DNA from: Escherichia phage LPEK22
Length of the DNA stretch: 64,000 nt
Sequence record: OK283619.1
Direction: 5' to 3' (one strand)
Shown piece after piece: positions 3,473 through 41,382 of the stretch. Position numbers and translations under genes: made by a program. The notes under the pieces are model-generated. The model worked only from the letters and a program-made list of their open reading frames with translations. It made no database searches and was not told where the DNA came from. The first letter of the stretch is position 1. Every line of letters starts with the position of its first letter.

Positions 3473-4090
3473 ATGACGATGACAACGTTGAAGGCCATGG
3501 CCTTGTCCGTGACCTTTACCATTGCCAGCGGGAGTGTGCACGCTTCCCAAAGTACCACCCAATGTGATTACGAATTTTCTGATCAACAACTTTCAACCAT
3601 GGCCACAGCCTATCACATAGGCAAACAACAAGACCTTGGTTTCACCCTCGCCGCGATATCATGGAGGGAAAGCCGCGCCGGAGAAGATGTTGTATCCATG
3701 CGGAATAACCTCAAATCGGCTAATATGGGGGCATTTCAAAATCGCGTCCAAACCGTCGGGAAACGGGAGGGATGCAAAACACAGAAGTGTTACGCCAATG
3801 TCGCGATCAAATTACTGGTCAATCAAGAGTACGCAGCCAATGCTGCCCTTGATGAAATGAATTTCTGGCTAGAATATCATAACCAAAACATCCGCAAATC
3901 CCTTTCCTCTTACAATGCCGGTTTCAGTCGTAACCAAAAATCCAATTCATACGCTGCTGATGTCGTGAAGAAGGCTAAATATCTTCAACGATGTGTGTCT
4001 TTCAAAGGCATGGCAATAAACCCAAAGGTCGACCCAGGAGTGATCGCCATGAATAAGCGCACGATTGAGAAACTCAAGAGGACCAGATAA
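3473..4090 (+). CDS. secreted lytic-transglycosylase-like (SLT domain) protein with N-terminal signal peptide
   Basis: Hydrophobic N-terminus ending ...VHASQ; SLT-like motifs WRESRAG (Glu-Ser), GAFQ, SYNAGFS. Confidence 0.5.
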   Translation: MTMTTLKAMALSVTFTIASGSVHASQSTTQCDYEFSDQQLSTMATAYHIGKQQDLGFTLAAISWRESRAGEDVVSMRNNLKSANMGAFQNRVQTVGKREGCKTQKCYANVAIKLLVNQEYAANAALDEMNFWLEYHNQNIRKSLSSYNAGFSRNQKSNSYAADVVKKAKYLQRCVSFKGMAINPKVDPGVIAMNKRTIEKLKRTR

Positions 4091-22200: not shown

Positions 22201-22725
22201 ATGCACGCGTTCTGTTTCAGTAAAGTGGGGGAGCAACTCGCAATTAATTATCCGGATGCAAACACGGACTTTTTTGTATTACTCACAGATTTTGCAAATA
22301 AATTGGGGATAAAGAATGTCGCCATGACCGTGTCCGATATGAAATTCGGGTGGCTGGGAGTTAAAGATTTATTGAATTATGGATTCAATGTGATTATCGT
22401 TGATCCAACGTACAGCCCAATTGACGAGGAAGATGTTATTCCAGTTTGGGTTCAACGAGACATAAACACTCTGGATAAGCATTATCCCGATTGTGTCATC
22501 ATTGGCGAATTAATACCGTATTTTCATAAACGTCGTCGCCTTGAAACAATTAAAAGTTATTTTCAAGATAATGATTGTGGATATAAAATGGATGTCCTTA
22601 CGAGCGGTTGGGTTGTGAAGAATACCACAGGCAATGCCGACCGAATTACTTCTCGTCTTTATGAATATGTTAAAGAACGGGATTATGAACTGGAGAACAA
22701 TAATGCCAAACGTAGAACGCGCTGA
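22201..22725 (+). CDS. hypothetical protein (174 aa)
   Basis: ORF with GAGGA SD. Confidence 0.45.
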   Translation: MHAFCFSKVGEQLAINYPDANTDFFVLLTDFANKLGIKNVAMTVSDMKFGWLGVKDLLNYGFNVIIVDPTYSPIDEEDVIPVWVQRDINTLDKHYPDCVIIGELIPYFHKRRRLETIKSYFQDNDCGYKMDVLTSGWVVKNTTGNADRITSRLYEYVKERDYELENNNAKRRTR

Positions 22726-36594: not shown

Positions 36595-36897
36595 ATGTCA
36601 GTTGAACAAATTGGTTTTTATCAACTCCCTTCTGATCCAAAACTGCGTCAAAAGATGATGCAGACTTTAGAAAATTGTCGTGCCGCCCAGATCCGTATCA
36701 AGTCTGAACAGACCTTTGTTACCGAAGCCCTGGCTGAATTGGCAAAAGAAACAGGCATCAAAGCCGTTGATCTGCGCAAAGTCGTTACCGATCGCGCTGG
36801 TGGAACTTATACCAAGACCATCGAGACCAGCGCCAAATACCAAGATCTTTATGAGTCGCTGTATCCTAACGCCGCGCCTGATCGCACGGATGAATAA
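36595..36897 (+). CDS. hypothetical protein (100 aa)
   Basis: ORF with GAGGA SD; terminator downstream. Confidence 0.45.
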   Translation: MSVEQIGFYQLPSDPKLRQKMMQTLENCRAAQIRIKSEQTFVTEALAELAKETGIKAVDLRKVVTDRAGGTYTKTIETSAKYQDLYESLYPNAAPDRTDE

Positions 36898-36906
36898 TAT
36901 CGGTTA

Positions 36907-36930
36907 AAGCCCAACATTTGTTGGGCTTTA
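36907..36930 (+). terminator. terminator hairpin merging into promoter
   Basis: AAGCCCAAC-ATTT-GTTGGGCTT followed by TACTT. Confidence 0.5.
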
Positions 36931-36971
36931 CTTCAATAAAACTTTACTTCAATAAAACTTGCGGCTATCAT
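36926..36971 (+). promoter_or_regulatory. tandemly duplicated promoter -35 region: 2 x CTTTACTTCAATAAAA, then TATCAT
   Basis: Exact 16-bp direct repeat; second TTTAC is 18 nt from TATCAT. Confidence 0.45.
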
Positions 36972-37014
36972 TTAACCTACATTGAAAAGTTTCACTACAT
37001 CATGAGAGGCAAAA

Positions 37015-38208
37015 ATGAAAGCCAAGACCTTCAGCATCCCAATTGATAACATTGGTCGTGTCAAGGAACGTCTTGCCAAACTTGAAAGAACGGCAAACCG
37101 CCTGAAACTCGAGTTCCCTCTTGTTGAGTTCAGTGAACCATACAAAACACAACACCGCGATTCTATCACTGGCGAAAAATTTTATCGTTGGTGGCAAGAT
37201 TGTACTCTAACTGGTGAAGGCATCGACCGCCCCGTTTCTTATGGTGGGTGGAGTATCATTGGACAATTCAACCACCAGTATCCAAAAGTCATTCTGAATA
37301 AACTGTCAGATGACATCCACCCAAATTTCGTTCAAAGATTTGAAGCTGAAAACGTATCTTGGTGCGAGCATTGCAACAAATCTGTGCGTCGTCATAACAC
37401 ATATGTCGTTCGTAACGAACAATCTGGCGCACAGATGCTCGTGGGTAGCAGCTGTATGCATCATTATGTCCCGCATCAGAAATCCCTTGATGCGGTTATG
37501 TCTTATTACATGTCTATTCACGAAATGTTTACCCCCGATGAAGATGACCCAGAAGGGATTTATCGGGTTAATGAACCAGATTATGTTGACACAGAAGGAT
37601 ATTTGTGTAAATGTTTTCAGGTTTTGCTGTCCGGCCTGAGCATTAAAAGTGATGATTTTGGTCGGGTTCTTGGTCATATCTCTAGCGGCACTCGTCCGGA
37701 GAAAGGTTCTGACATTGAGATATTCTATAACAAGGCTGTTAAAGCCCGTGAAGATGCTCAATCAGAGATGTATCATATGATGCTTTTCATCGCATCGTTG
37801 TCTGAAAATAACGATTTCAACGTCCGGCTGAAACGTATGTGCGAACCTGGTTATCACCTTGTTAAAGACTCAACAACAGTTCGTTGGGGAGCAGCAAAGT
37901 ATTATGATTATATCCACACCCCCCGCCAAACGCGCACTGTATCAAATTGGGTTGGTGAAGTTGGTGAAATGTTAGAAGCACAGGTCAAATTTGAAGCAAG
38001 GATTTTCCTGTATTCATCTGATTATGGTGACACGTATCTGTATACTTTCAAAACCAAGGAAGGCAATACCATTACATGGAAGACTTCCTATATGGAAACC
38101 GAGTTTTTAGAAGGCGATATGATCATTCGAGGTCGTGTCAAAGAATTGACCGAATTCAAAGGTATTAAACAAACTCAGATTACAAGGGCAAAACTGAGGA
38201 AATTATGA
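37015..38208 (+). CDS. hypothetical protein (397 aa) with Cys/His cluster
   Basis: ORF after tandem promoter; WCEHCNKS...SSCMHHY. Confidence 0.55.
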   Translation: MKAKTFSIPIDNIGRVKERLAKLERTANRLKLEFPLVEFSEPYKTQHRDSITGEKFYRWWQDCTLTGEGIDRPVSYGGWSIIGQFNHQYPKVILNKLSDDIHPNFVQRFEAENVSWCEHCNKSVRRHNTYVVRNEQSGAQMLVGSSCMHHYVPHQKSLDAVMSYYMSIHEMFTPDEDDPEGIYRVNEPDYVDTEGYLCKCFQVLLSGLSIKSDDFGRVLGHISSGTRPEKGSDIEIFYNKAVKAREDAQSEMYHMMLFIASLSENNDFNVRLKRMCEPGYHLVKDSTTVRWGAAKYYDYIHTPRQTRTVSNWVGEVGEMLEAQVKFEARIFLYSSDYGDTYLYTFKTKEGNTITWKTSYMETEFLEGDMIIRGRVKELTEFKGIKQTQITRAKLRKL

Positions 38209-38321
38209 TTCTTTTACAATTTGTTTTGAAAGCATTTGCATTCGGTCTTATCGCATGCGGAGTGATCACAGCTATGCTGTTAATCATAGCCCTGATCATC
38301 CCATTTAAGAGGAAACGTTAA
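38205..38321 (+). CDS. small membrane peptide (38 aa, MILLQFVLKAFAFGLIACGVITAMLLIIALIIPFKRKR), not in ORF track
   Basis: ATGA overlap upstream and TAATG overlap downstream; single TM helix. Confidence 0.3.
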   Translation: MILLQFVLKAFAFGLIACGVITAMLLIIALIIPFKRKR

Positions 38322-38521
38322 TGAAACGGGAAATCTTGGATGTTTACTACCCTGGATCTTGTTGTCCAGGCCATGACAAGTACCCAGCGGACACATACAA
38401 AAATCGCCGCTCTAAATCAAAACGTTCAGACGGTATTAAAAAGGAGCATCGACATGTCCGCCGTGTCAAGCGCCAAAATCTGAAATCTGATTTGCTCTTC
38501 ATTACCAAGGAGGATTTCTAA
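38321..38521 (+). CDS. hypothetical basic protein (66 aa)
   Basis: Coupled chain. Confidence 0.4.
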   Translation: MKREILDVYYPGSCCPGHDKYPADTYKNRRSKSKRSDGIKKEHRHVRRVKRQNLKSDLLFITKEDF

Positions 38522-38733
38522 TGGAATGTTCATGCGGAGGGCAAGGCACAAGTGCATACTTGCCATTTAACACCGTGAAGGAAGCCGAAGAAGCCGGATA
38601 TGCCGTGGATAAGGCTCCCTGTGTAATTGCCACCAAGGATTGTCCGTGCTGTAAGAGGCACTCTCAGGACGTGCATTACTCACCAAACGCACGTTCAGAT
38701 AAAGTCAATCTTCTTTCACTGATGAGTAAATGA
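38521..38733 (+). CDS. Cys-rich small protein (70 aa)
   Basis: MECSCGG...DCPCCKRH. Confidence 0.4.
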   Translation: MECSCGGQGTSAYLPFNTVKEAEEAGYAVDKAPCVIATKDCPCCKRHSQDVHYSPNARSDKVNLLSLMSK

Positions 38734-38734
38734 C

Positions 38735-39088
38735 ATGCGCAAATATTTTAACTGGTTGTTGGGGAAACCCCTAAGCGTCGAAATCCGTTGTCTTATTGAT
38801 GCCATCGACGCTGATGACGTTGAATGGAATGGTGAACGCTTTGTCGGTATCGATGCTGTCATCTATAACGGCGTAAGGGTATGTGCATATACAGTCAATA
38901 GCAGCGCAGGGTATAGAGTCGATATCGGTTTTTGTTTCGATTGTCTGCCATACCATGAGGCCAAGGCCGTGTATAAAGCGCTCACCCGACATCACAGGCG
39001 TCGGATTAATCGTGAAGCAATTCAGGTCGATACATATGACCGTGAAAAAGTCCGCAAAGCTCTGGGGTGTCACAATGTCAAAAGTTGA
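38735..39088 (+). CDS. hypothetical protein (117 aa)
   Basis: Coupled chain. Confidence 0.45.
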   Translation: MRKYFNWLLGKPLSVEIRCLIDAIDADDVEWNGERFVGIDAVIYNGVRVCAYTVNSSAGYRVDIGFCFDCLPYHEAKAVYKALTRHHRRRINREAIQVDTYDREKVRKALGCHNVKS

Positions 39089-39494
39089 AATCCAATGCAA
39101 ATGCTGTCCGAACAAGAAGATGGTTCGCCAGGCCGACATTGACCGTGGCTGGGGGTTGTTCTGTTCTAAGTCTTGCGCCGCCTACTGGAAGACCTTTGGG
39201 TGTCGTAAAGATACCCCAACAGACCTGTCCCTGAATGGCAAGCGACCTAAATCGGCGCAGGCAATCCTTTCTGATTTGCGGAAAGAGTCTGTCCGCCTTT
39301 CTGCTGGCCTCACTGAAGAGCAGATGGACAAACTCAATAAGGCGGGTTGTGGTCATATCCGATTCGACGGAATGGACTATCCTCTGTTCAGTTCTCGCCA
39401 GCTCAGAGTCCTTGGGGCTTCAAAGGCTGAGATAAGAGAAGCTGAACGCGATGAAGCCGAAGAGGGCGCATACGGCCATCACGATTTTCAATAA
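39075..39494 (+). CDS. Cys-rich putative zinc-binding protein (139 aa)
   Basis: CKCCPNKK...CSKSCAAYW; internal ATG of track ORF 38883..39494. Confidence 0.45.
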   Translation: MSKVEIQCKCCPNKKMVRQADIDRGWGLFCSKSCAAYWKTFGCRKDTPTDLSLNGKRPKSAQAILSDLRKESVRLSAGLTEEQMDKLNKAGCGHIRFDGMDYPLFSSRQLRVLGASKAEIREAERDEAEEGAYGHHDFQ

Positions 39495-39541
39495 ACGATT
39501 TACCCATATAATGCATGGGAACTTTACAGAAGGATCAGACT

Positions 39542-39901
39542 ATGACCACACTTGTAGAAACATTATTCCCAGGATGCACCCTTGGGCGCGGCGGTAGCGA
39601 AGCCAACGGGCTGGCAATTGACGCCGAACCCCAGAACTGTGTTGTTATCGACAAATTCCATGACAATCATTATGCTCTGAATGATCGTCGCGATCATTAT
39701 TTGGTTTCTGTGGGAGAATCTTTGGTTCACCTTCGAATCTGTTCTGCTTTACCAGGATATGGGTATGACGCATTTGCTTATATCCATGATGTTTCCAACG
39801 GTGAGATGGGGAAAGAATCCCTGATTGAAAAATTCAAGAGTTGGAAGGAATCTTTCACCTCTGCCACACCACCGAACAACAGAAAAAGACGCAGCAAATA
39901 A
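39542..39901 (+). CDS. hypothetical protein
   Basis: Internal ATG with AAGGA SD within track ORF 39515..39901. Confidence 0.4.
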   Translation: MTTLVETLFPGCTLGRGGSEANGLAIDAEPQNCVVIDKFHDNHYALNDRRDHYLVSVGESLVHLRICSALPGYGYDAFAYIHDVSNGEMGKESLIEKFKSWKESFTSATPPNNRKRRSK

Positions 39902-39954: not shown

Positions 39955-41382
39955 ATGATGCTTCCTCTTTTAGAAATAATTCAAAATCTTCGCGATACCA
40001 AAGGCACCAACGCCAAGAAAGCTGTGCTGACCGAGGCGTTCAGAAACAACCCAGAATTGGTTGATTTCCTTCAATACGTCTACGACCCGATGCGTTCTTA
40101 TTACCGCACTCAATTCAATCTAAACGCATTCCCTCGCATGCTTTCGCGCGGCGTTGTTGGTAGCTGGGATCAGGTTTATGACGTTCTCGATATGATGGCC
40201 GAACGCAAGATCGGTGGGATGAAGGCAGATCAAGAACTTGCGAAGGCCGCGACCAACATCCATCCGGATTACCATACCCTGATACAAATTATACTCGACA
40301 GAGACATCAAAGCGGGAATTGCCGAGAAAGGTATAAACGCAGCATTCAATGCGGCAGGTGGTACAGGGCGTCTGATTAATATCCTTCCATATCACCGTTA
40401 TGATAACATGACGATTGACTTGCTGAAGAAGATGGACTTCAAGCGCGGCGTCTTCAGCCAGCTGAAGTCAGATGGCATGTTCGCCAACATCATCTGTCGT
40501 TATGGAAGAGACCCAGAGATTCGTTCTCGTTCCGGTTCTCTTATTGCGGGTGGTTCCGTTGATAACCTGTCATTGGTTTTCAAAGACCTGATCTATGATG
40601 CGGGGATTGGTGAAAGCGTCTTCCATGGTGAACTGCTCGTCATTGATCTGAAAACGAATACAGTGTTGCCTCGGGCTATCGGCAATGGTAAGCTCAACAG
40701 TGTCATCCAAACGGGTGAACCCCTGGAAGATCGTTACAAGGTGATCTACCGAGTGTGGGACGTTGTGCCGTATGATAATTGGTTCAATGCTCAGCGTGTG
40801 GACACCCCATATGAGCGCCGTTTTGATATCATACAACAGTTGTTCGAAGGGGATGACGGACTGGTTCAGGTTCAAGAAACCCGTGTTGTTCATTCATTTG
40901 AAGAAGCTGTCGAACACTTCAAAGACGCTTTGGCTCGTCGGGAAGAAGGCACGATTTGTAAGGCCGCAGATATGCCTTGGGAAGATGGAACATCATCTGA
41001 AGGGTTAAAGCTAAAAATGGAAGTAGAATGTGACCTTGAAATCGTTGGCTTCAACGAGGCCGATAAGAAAGGGAAGCACGCCAAGACATTTGGATCTCTC
41101 CTCTGCAAGACCTCTGATAGCCTCTTAGTTGTTGGCGTATCGGGGATCTCAGATGAGTTGAGACTACGAATGTGGGAAAACCAAGAGGACTTCATTGGTA
41201 AGATTGCCGCCGTGCTCTCTAATGGCGTACAGGATAAAACCGATGACGCCATGAAGTCTCTATTCCTTCCACGTCTCGTTGAAGTACGCACAGACAAGAA
41301 AGTCGCTAATACACTGGCTGAAGTCTATGCTATCCAGAAAGCATATATCGAAAATATTTTGGTGTTGTTGGAAGCGGCATGA
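39955..41382 (+). CDS. ATP-dependent DNA ligase (T4 gp30-like)
   Basis: Adenylation motif QLKSDGMF (KxDG), 475 aa. Confidence 0.8.
   Translation: MMLPLLEIIQNLRDTKGTNAKKAVLTEAFRNNPELVDFLQYVYDPMRSYYRTQFNLNAFPRMLSRGVVGSWDQVYDVLDMMAERKIGGMKADQELAKAATNIHPDYHTLIQIILDRDIKAGIAEKGINAAFNAAGGTGRLINILPYHRYDNMTIDLLKKMDFKRGVFSQLKSDGMFANIICRYGRDPEIRSRSGSLIAGGSVDNLSLVFKDLIYDAGIGESVFHGELLVIDLKTNTVLPRAIGNGKLNSVIQTGEPLEDRYKVIYRVWDVVPYDNWFNAQRVDTPYERRFDIIQQLFEGDDGLVQVQETRVVHSFEEAVEHFKDALARREEGTICKAADMPWEDGTSSEGLKLKMEVECDLEIVGFNEADKKGKHAKTFGSLLCKTSDSLLVVGVSGISDELRLRMWENQEDFIGKIAAVLSNGVQDKTDDAMKSLFLPRLVEVRTDKKVANTLAEVYAIQKAYIENILVLLEAA

Follow-up and report, generated by a model that had tools for sequence, protein, structure and literature searches.

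The 64,000-nucleotide (nt) stretch of the Escherichia phage LPEK22 genome analyzed here (record OK283619.1; hereafter, the window) carries at positions 38205-39494 a chain of five small genes, designated p38, p66, p70, p117, and p139 according to the length of their products in amino acids (aa). The chain is headed by the gene of a 397-aa protein, p397, and is followed by an ATP-dependent DNA ligase gene (Table 1). Positions 36900-39900 were 99.8% identical to Escherichia phage CBA120 and to dozens of Salmonella and E. coli phages of the genus Kuttervirus (Ackermannviridae), and the window represents a CBA120-like Kuttervirus. In CBA120, the genes lie on a single strand throughout, in the order gp41-type helicase, two small genes (one labelled "transcriptional regulator"), orf061 (397 aa), orf060, orf058, orf057, orf055, orf053, gp30 DNA ligase, two small genes, and the gp59 helicase loader. 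Since the chain is placed between the helicase and the ligase and gp59 loader, it resides inside the replication-gene cluster.

The chain was first picked out in a reading of the bare sequence, made without database searches (the sequence-only reading), and all five of its open reading frames (ORFs) were found at the positions proposed, on the plus strand. They can be regarded as genuine genes under purifying selection because each matched a PHROG profile over its full length (Table 1), nonsynonymous divergence (pN) was far below synonymous divergence (pS) for every ORF in comparisons with other genera (dN/dS of about 0.07-0.3 where dS was unsaturated), and the Shine-Dalgarno sites and gene junctions were kept across genera. 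The five PHROG families are all of unknown function, and searches of Pfam, NCBIfam, PADLOC, and PDB sequences with all proteins and profiles returned no significant match, which agrees with the earlier description of the genes as essentially uncharacterized. More than 200 public genomes annotate these ORFs as "hypothetical." No transcriptomic, proteomic, or functional data on them were found in the literature; the only mass spectrometry concerned purified virions. Cysteine accounted for 8.6% of the residues of p70 and 5% of those of p139, compared with 0.9% in the adjacent large proteins.

The sequence-only reading also had all members of the chain linked by ATGA or TAATG overlaps. This is correct for p38, which starts right after the 397-aa protein gene in an ATGA overlap with the p397 stop codon, and for the p38/p66 and p66/p70 junctions (both TAATG); p70 and p117 are separated by a 1-nt spacer (TGAcATG), and p117 and p139 overlap by 14 nt. 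Good Shine-Dalgarno sequences precede p38 (GAGGAA), p66 (AGAGGA), and p70 (AAGGAGGA), and weak ones precede p117 and p139. Counted between ORFs no shorter than 35 aa, stop-start overlaps (ATGA or TnATG) numbered 47 in the window versus 4.4 ± 2.1 in shuffled sequences. They are thus common throughout this genome, and the tight packing of the chain is real but not distinctive.

Table 1. Genes of the chain and other features of the locus in the LPEK22 window
Feature	Position	Strand	CBA120 gene	PHROG family (E value)	Description
p397	37015..38208	+	orf061/gp046		heads the chain; N-terminal alpha/beta domain, CxxC...CxH zinc ribbon, helical domain, C-terminal OB fold similar to single-stranded DNA-binding protein (SSB)
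p38	38205..38321	+		phrog_6569 (2e-27)	38 aa; single-pass membrane peptide, KRKR tail
p66	38321..38521	+	orf060/gp045	phrog_5428 (6e-38)	66 aa; very basic; inserted between p38 and p70
p70	38521..38733	+	orf058/gp044	phrog_4789 (9e-45)	70 aa; four-Cys CxC...CPxC; most conserved gene of the chain, linked to ligase
p117	38735..39088	+	orf057/gp043	phrog_8918 (2e-70)	117 aa; accessory, restricted to Ackermannviridae
p139	39075..39494	+	orf055/gp042	phrog_20332 (2.3e-99)	139 aa; TRASH/FCS/YacG-like knuckle (residues about 3-47) and unique C-terminal region
p119	39542..39901	+	orf053/gp041	phrog_5022	accessory gene between chain and ligase
DNA ligase	39955..41382	+	gp30 DNA ligase		gp30-type, ATP-dependent; PF01068 on homologs
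Terminator hairpin	36902..36932	+			intrinsic; lies behind the 100-aa "transcriptional regulator" gene and ends the unit to which it belongs; folding energy -16.9 kcal/mol (z = -5.1)
Direct repeat	36930-36960				perfect, 2 x 15 nt, ACTTCAATAAAACTT; directly after the terminator hairpin, overlaps the candidate promoter
Candidate promoter	36943..36971	+			sigma-70-like (TTTACT, 17 nt, TATCAT), for the p397-to-p139 unit; promoter scan, 9/12 matches
Promoter-like site	39485..39512	+			TTTTCA, 16 nt, TATAAT; in the 47-nt gap 3' of p139, where tight coupling ends

The locus was compared by a tblastn matrix across 14 relatives, namely CBA120, PLL1, ST2, JN03, Matapan, ViI, PM10, SeKF_19, ECML-4, fGh-Ecl02, Agtrevirus MK-13, Klebsiella phage RCIP0012, Limestonevirus Ds3CZ, and Taipeivirus IME250. 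All 14 had p397, p38 (by ORF inspection), and p70 in the same order. The distribution of p66, p117, and p139 was patchy, each being present or absent independently between close relatives. This pattern indicates that the chain is a composite of an old core and later-inserted accessory genes, not the single cassette assumed in the sequence-only reading. The core order (p397, usually a small membrane peptide, p70, ligase) recurred in six Ackermannviridae genera, in Vibrio phages, and in metagenomic lineages. Yersinia phage CAU_YEP3 has the bare core of p397, p38, p70, and, after 108 nt, the ligase, with no insertions; the Dickeya phage core is nearly bare, with 146 nt between p70 and ligase, and this gap is larger in Kuttervirus and Taipeivirus. 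Among relatives, the distance from the p397 stop to the ligase start ranged from 0.5 kb to 2.9 kb, and HNH or homing endonuclease genes were frequent near the region. Other versions of the p70-to-ligase region (L005, 4292-4897; L032, 3757-4365; L036, 5511-6119) encode small membrane proteins and a PspA/IM30-family protein of about 202 aa (PF04012, up to 35.1 bits versus a cutoff of 33.9). This protein, a phage-encoded homolog of membrane-stress and remodelling proteins within the replication cluster, is absent from the window.

The most conserved member of the chain, p70, contains both the CSC and the CPCC sequences attributed to it. In 13 sequences, with identity down to 26%, residues C3, C5, C41, and C44 were invariant, as were G6, P33, and Y53; C34 and C43 were not invariant across the family. 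Since C43 varies, the supposed CPCC pair is really a CPxC knuckle, and the restriction of invariance to these four cysteines, with G6, P33, and Y53, fits one structural zinc site. The identity of p70 to its counterparts in other genera was 69-86%, compared with 66-71% for p397, and its dN/dS was 0.11-0.32. The family is tiny: an indexed search found 15 clusters, and an exhaustive HMMER scan of 1.84 billion representative proteins gave 9 matches, of which about 7 were credible. Two long proteins matched by the profile, P0047 and P0048, were discarded as Cys-rich noise because multiple short stretches were matched.

The linkage of p70 to the ligase was found in two forms. In Serratia phage phiMAM1, the annotated 565-aa "DNA ligase" starts with a p70 domain and reads into the ligase without a stop. 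The junction is common to five Miltonvirus isolates (phiMAM1, 3M, 2050H1, KNP4, and Kevin, the last with 86% identity) and, being repeated in 3M, 2050H1, KNP4, and the divergent Kevin, is not a sequencing error. The second form is adjacency. A transmembrane (TM) protein, a p70-like protein, and the ligase are contiguous in Erwinia phage phiEa2809, far from p397, with a p70-ligase gap of 46 nt. Vibrio phage D533 encodes a p397-like protein (23% identity), two TM proteins, and a 99-aa p70-like protein, with the ligase 4 nt further on; its p70-like protein aligned to p70 in hhalign with 87% probability (E = 3.8e-6) and with the cysteines aligned. In the metagenomic lineages L030 and L034, p70 (32-39% identity) is located just upstream of the ligase, at 51 and 40 nt, respectively, and in one lineage of this type a basic-tailed TM protein of 60 aa is encoded ahead of it. 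Salmonella phage allotria keeps p38, p70, and the ligase although p397 is deleted. Thus, fusion in some genomes and adjacency across divergent lineages, the two signs used in Rosetta-stone comparisons, were both found for p70 and the ligase, from which we infer that p70 may be a zinc-binding or zinc-stabilized partner of the ligase. In several public records, stand-alone homologs of p70 or p119 are called "DNA ligase" (allotria gp130, Klebsiella phage FKP10, and the record notes of fGh-Ecl02). The fusion (L027, 3501-5198, and relatives) seems to have seeded these wrong annotations, which explains why such tiny ORFs are mislabelled.

The explanation that we favor, with somewhat more confidence than doubt, is that the five genes are coupled genes of one replication-cluster transcription unit of composite origin, in which p70 would most likely serve as a zinc-stabilized ligase partner. 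The ancestral core consists of p397, usually a small basic-tailed membrane protein (here p38), p70, and the ATP-dependent DNA ligase. Accessory genes were inserted into it, p66 exactly between p38 and p70, and p117, p139, and p119 in the interval from p70 to the ligase. The part of p70 would be recruitment, nick sensing, or DNA binding, performed in trans in most phages and as an N-terminal ligase domain in Miltonvirus, and p38 may tether or localize the p70-ligase function at the inner membrane. The accessory p66, p117, and p139 are mobile genes. The reality and conservation of the genes, the composite layout, and the fusion and adjacency with the ligase are established by the sequence comparisons; zinc binding by p70, its interaction with the ligase, and any membrane role are predictions.

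The main rival, which we consider somewhat unlikely, is inherited gene order combined with an accidental fusion: the p70-ligase order would be ancestral, the Miltonvirus fusion a neutral loss of a stop codon, and p70 would act with p397 or alone. Several observations weigh against the favored explanation. The adjacency of p70 and the ligase may be no more than a legacy of ancestral gene order within a conserved replication module. The two genes are 0.4-2.5 kb apart in Kuttervirus, Taipeivirus, and the lineages L032 and L036, with other genes, unrelated ones in many phages, in the interval, and the coupling of p70 is instead with p397 or p38 (directly with p397 by TGATG in L036, and via p38 in most genera). 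The Miltonvirus fusion retains the ligase's own Met, so that separate translation of the ligase is possible, and it could be a tolerated stop-codon loss. The structure model of p70 was of moderate confidence (predicted local distance difference test score of 71.5) and had no fold relative. Finally, p38 is absent from L032 and L036, and the TM proteins upstream of p70 are not all homologous to each other. On the other hand, p70 accompanies the ligase and not p397 in those genomes in which p397 has been displaced (Miltonvirus, phiEa2809) or lost by deletion (allotria). Moreover, the five isolates have kept the fusion although their proteins differ by up to 14%, the adjacency holds where p70 is only 26-39% identical, and p70, with its nine matches in the whole representative protein set, is not a promiscuous domain.

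The accessory genes differ from the core in their distribution. The p66 product was correctly described as a 66-aa basic protein (isoelectric point 9.9, 18 Lys and Arg residues). It is missing from ViI, SeKF_19, MK-13, and the Dickeya, Klebsiella, and Serratia phages, and since p38 and p70 are there coupled by TGATG, p66 is an exact one-gene insertion. Proteins 57-76% identical to p66 occur in Felixounavirus, Pseudomonas phage phiPMW, and a T4-like Yersinia phage; the gene overlaps the stop codon of an ATP-dependent ligase gene in Felixounavirus and lies among transfer RNA (tRNA) genes in phiPMW. Its invariant residues comprise MKRE, CC-P-x-H-D, KEHR, and RRV, and also H43, and pN was 0.16 versus a saturated pS of about 0.8. 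By these comparisons, p66 is a mobile, strongly constrained small basic protein, possibly with a metal site of the CCHH type.

The p117 family comprised 114 records, all from Ackermannviridae except two with doubtful host labels, and was absent from PM10, SeKF_19, ECML-4, and the Dickeya phage. Its dN/dS was 0.15, and neither PDB nor Pfam yielded a match. The idea that p117 is a zinc protein was ruled out, as its cysteines are not conserved in the alignment, and a 117-aa gene that follows p70 in L032 proved not to be homologous. An apparent insertion in PLL1, considered as a new element, is actually a 112-nt tandem duplication in the 3' end of p117 (L002, about 3580-3700), which cuts p117 short and extends the p139 ORF as annotated; both an assembly artefact and a genuine variant are conceivable.

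Both cysteine motifs reported for p139, CKCC and CSKSC, are present, and a longer 203-aa ORF starting at GTG was rejected because this GTG is not the conserved start. Apart from phages of the CBA120 type (28 phage records, 7 protein clusters), full-length p139 was found only in a few divergent relatives from metagenomes. One such divergent lineage, L036, retains p117 and p139 as a pair, likewise overlapping by 14 nt. The N-terminal part of about 45 residues forms a CxC/CxxC...R-G-W...CSKxC-A-A knuckle, which is common to phrog_17137, phrog_21416, and phrog_22491 in many unrelated phages, where it is found at the C terminus of proteins of about 110-165 aa or at the N terminus of a 95-aa protein. 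Knuckle proteins adjoined exonuclease or recombinase genes in two of the six cases examined: in a Uetakevirus and a Klebsiella siphovirus (L015, 1486-2596; L019, 1198-2600), their genes immediately precede one for a PD-(D/E)XK protein or "exonuclease VIII" and one for a recombinase. There are hints here of a role of the knuckle domain at DNA ends or in recombination.

The p139 pattern C8-x2-C11-x18-F-C30-S-K-S-C34 resembles two known groups of zinc proteins. YacG is a DNA gyrase inhibitor of E. coli, whose C-terminal tail binds GyrB (structure 4tma). The motif aligned with YacG in hhalign (85% probability) and in hmmsearch, but p139 had no match to the YacG family PF03884 at E ≤ 10, and PDB YacG chains were reached only at E = 6.6-6.9. 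The alignment ends at the zinc motif (query residues 1-37 to YacG residues 1-35), which is followed by AAYWKTFG and then by a 90-aa region unlike YacG. Assignment of p139 to YacG was therefore rejected: it shares the motif only, and neither a family-level match nor the GyrB-binding tail was found. Compared with the TRASH and zf-FCS fingers (PF24900 and PF06467; pattern C-x2-C-x19-22-C-x3-C), p139 has an 18-residue spacer, and the best score was 15.2 bits versus a cutoff of 27. In Pfam, TRASH_ZMYM4 and zf-FCS appeared at E of about 0.015, below the cutoff, and 3 of 11 knuckle-domain homologs matched TRASH_ZMYM4 and 1 of 11 zf-FCS, likewise below the threshold (E of about 0.014-0.02). Residues 8-34 of p139, C-x2-C-x18-(F)CSKxC, share with YacG the knuckle pattern and the "FCSK.C" core. 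Unlike YacG and the TRASH/FCS (MYM-type) fingers, p139 has an invariant A-D-x-x-R-G-W before the second knuckle, which is specific to the phage family.

These results bear on the proposal of the sequence-only reading that the chain is a host-takeover cassette of tiny zinc-binding proteins. Zinc binding is plausible for p70, with its four invariant cysteines in CxC...CxxC, and for p139, with its Cys4 pattern and sub-threshold TRASH/FCS matches; it is possible for p66 in view of the invariant CC-P-x-H and H43, and the proposal fails for p117, whose cysteines vary. Host takeover would mean that the basic and Cys-rich proteins are early effectors inhibiting gyrase, RNA polymerase, or the nucleoid. 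This is consistent with the promiscuity of p66 and the p139 knuckle across unrelated phage families, as in host-directed accessory genes, with the 57-76% identity of p66 across four unrelated phage lineages, which would fit a conserved host target, with the resemblance of the p139 CxxC...FCSKxC to the gyrase inhibitor YacG, and with the gain and loss of p66, p117, and p139 among close relatives. However, the chain is located in the replication cluster rather than in an early region at a genome end, p38 and p70 show wide conservation among Ackermannviridae, and p70 adjoins or is fused to the ligase, so that the host-takeover label is unsupported for the module. In addition, all YacG, zf-FCS, and TRASH scores were sub-threshold, p139 has no YacG alignment beyond the motif, and no PADLOC or anti-defence match was obtained. 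We consider a host-takeover cassette decidedly improbable; such a role is possible for p66, p117, and p139 individually.

Besides its protein sequence, the 5' part of p70 is conserved as DNA. In the first 50 codons (38521-38672), pS to other genera was 0.23-0.33 versus 0.6-1.0 in p397 and the ligase, although the nonsynonymous divergence of the ligase, despite its higher pS, was the same as that of p70. It is the sole stretch of the chain that still aligns at the DNA level with Klebsiella and Serratia phages, with long runs unchanged among four genera, and in many Kutterviruses the homology breaks near codon 50 (about 38672). A recombination linker or a homing co-conversion tract would be a plausible cause of these features. 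A conserved RNA structure in this region was rejected: there was a single compensatory pair, the covariation term was +0.83, and z was -1.3. The low pS, the retained DNA similarity, the homology breakpoint, and the HNH and homing endonuclease genes nearby in several relatives could together mean that p70 is primarily a DNA element, for instance a linker for recombination, a promoter, or the target of a homing endonuclease together with its co-conversion tract, and that the ORF is secondary. We give this little chance: the four cysteines, P33, and Y53 are kept in Vibrio and metagenomic p70 homologs that have no DNA similarity, dN/dS is 0.1-0.3, and RNA structure is unsupported. A DNA element is at most an extra layer on a real p70 gene.

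Within the favored explanation, p397 is a nucleic-acid-binding protein with a zinc ribbon and an SSB-like oligonucleotide/oligosaccharide-binding (OB) fold. It differs from OB-fold proteins of the SSB/RPA type in being a 397-aa multidomain protein with an extra zinc ribbon and a helical domain that have no structural relatives, in not being the annotated SSB of this phage, and in being dispensable in allotria. In the latter phage (L029, 2127-2501), a 1.66-kb deletion has one end within the gene of an F-LimIV-like HNH homing endonuclease and the other at the 3' end of p397, and it joins the endonuclease fragment to the p38 reading frame. Since p397 is lost in this viable isolate, it is dispensable.

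The first peptide of the chain, p38, is as proposed a 38-aa single-TM peptide, with one hydrophobic helix, a grand average of hydropathy of 1.73, and a KRKR tail. Equivalents, i.e., ORFs of 38-46 aa that encode a basic-tailed TM helix and overlap both neighbours, were found in all four genera tested and in CAU_YEP3. This architecture is kept even at 39-45% identity (Klebsiella and Serratia phages), and dN/dS was 0.07-0.29. The gene is unannotated in the CBA120 RefSeq record and annotated in ViI, PLL1, PM10, and others. In the Kuttervirus, Erwinia, Miltonvirus, Vibrio, and L030 lineages, the gene that precedes p70 and is coupled to it encodes a small, basic-tailed TM protein. The single TM helix with a charged C-terminal tail, and the membrane proteins and PspA/IM30-like gene in other versions of the region, would also suit a holin, an antiholin, or a superinfection-exclusion peptide unrelated to replication, but this is very improbable given that Pfam and NCBIfam gave no holin match, the neighbours are replication genes with no endolysin, spanin, or other lysis gene nearby, p38 where present is always coupled between p397 and p70 and was lost in two lineages with its neighbours kept, and the family match is limited to phrog_6569.

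The unit itself appears to be delimited on the upstream side by the terminator hairpin, whose pairing is kept in all genera compared despite an altered stem (GCCCAACA/TGTTGGGC versus GCCCAGTC/ACTGGGC) and which the record of phage Matapan annotates as a terminator. The promoter-like element behind it is kept across four genera as TTTACT-17-TATCAT/TAATAT and may act as the promoter of the p397-to-p139 unit. The direct repeat ACTTCAATAAAACTT gave 3 matches versus 0.22 expected, the third copy, with 2 mismatches, being at 22364-22378 on the minus strand. On the downstream side, the predicted promoter-like site near the end of p139 was the top consensus match of a 9-kb scan (10/12). The accessory gene p119 was found in many, not all, relatives, with dN/dS of about 0.11-0.14. 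Homologs of the 100-aa "transcriptional regulator" (36595-36897) had weak matches to Pfam Phage_DsbA (PF11126), and this protein may be a double-stranded DNA-binding protein like T4 DsbA, not a classical regulator. Rfam and tRNA scans found no tRNA genes or Rfam families in the window. Two records with other host names, OR844942 ("Enterococcus phage Efm 3-10") and MN871475 ("Pseudomonas phage Pa-sanjiao"), were 99.8% identical to Kuttervirus at 36900-39900; these host names are questionable, and contamination or wrong labelling may lie behind them.

The architecture of the chain is ordinary for large lytic phages and contains nothing categorically new, and its ORFs are already public as hypothetical proteins. 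The T4 ORFs 30.1-30.9 beside the gene 30 ligase form a small-ORF cluster in a plastic region between core replication genes. Like such clusters, the chain consists of short, overlapping, mostly uncharacterized same-strand ORFs and is variable, often with homing endonucleases; it differs in that p38 and p70 are widely conserved and not variable, and the likeness drawn here is one of layout. What is modestly new, and can be tested, is that p70 is linked with the ligase. Zinc modules are known from cellular ligases, namely the N-terminal PARP-like zinc finger of eukaryotic DNA ligase III (Lig3) and the Cys4 zinc finger of the bacterial NAD+-dependent LigA. Similarly, p70 would be a small Cys4 unit that is joined to a ligase or operates alongside it, and its position in Miltonvirus is N-terminal, as in Lig3.

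A bolder version of the favored explanation, unlikely in our estimate, casts p70, alone or together with p38, as a zinc-binding cofactor of a new type for the ATP-dependent ligases of phages. It would be the counterpart, acting in trans, of the zinc fingers integral to cellular ligases and would recruit or regulate the sealing of nicks, possibly at the membrane; its unusually conserved first 150 nt would also serve as a recombination or homing hotspot through which the downstream accessory genes are exchanged. Were p70 such a cofactor, no accessory zinc protein of a viral ATP-dependent ligase would have been described before it, and the finding could matter for ligase biochemistry and enzyme engineering. 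The phages concerned include those used for biocontrol of Salmonella and E. coli O157, and in the favored explanation, five "hypothetical proteins" of more than 200 phage genomes would resolve into a conserved core tied to the ligase and a set of exchangeable accessory genes.

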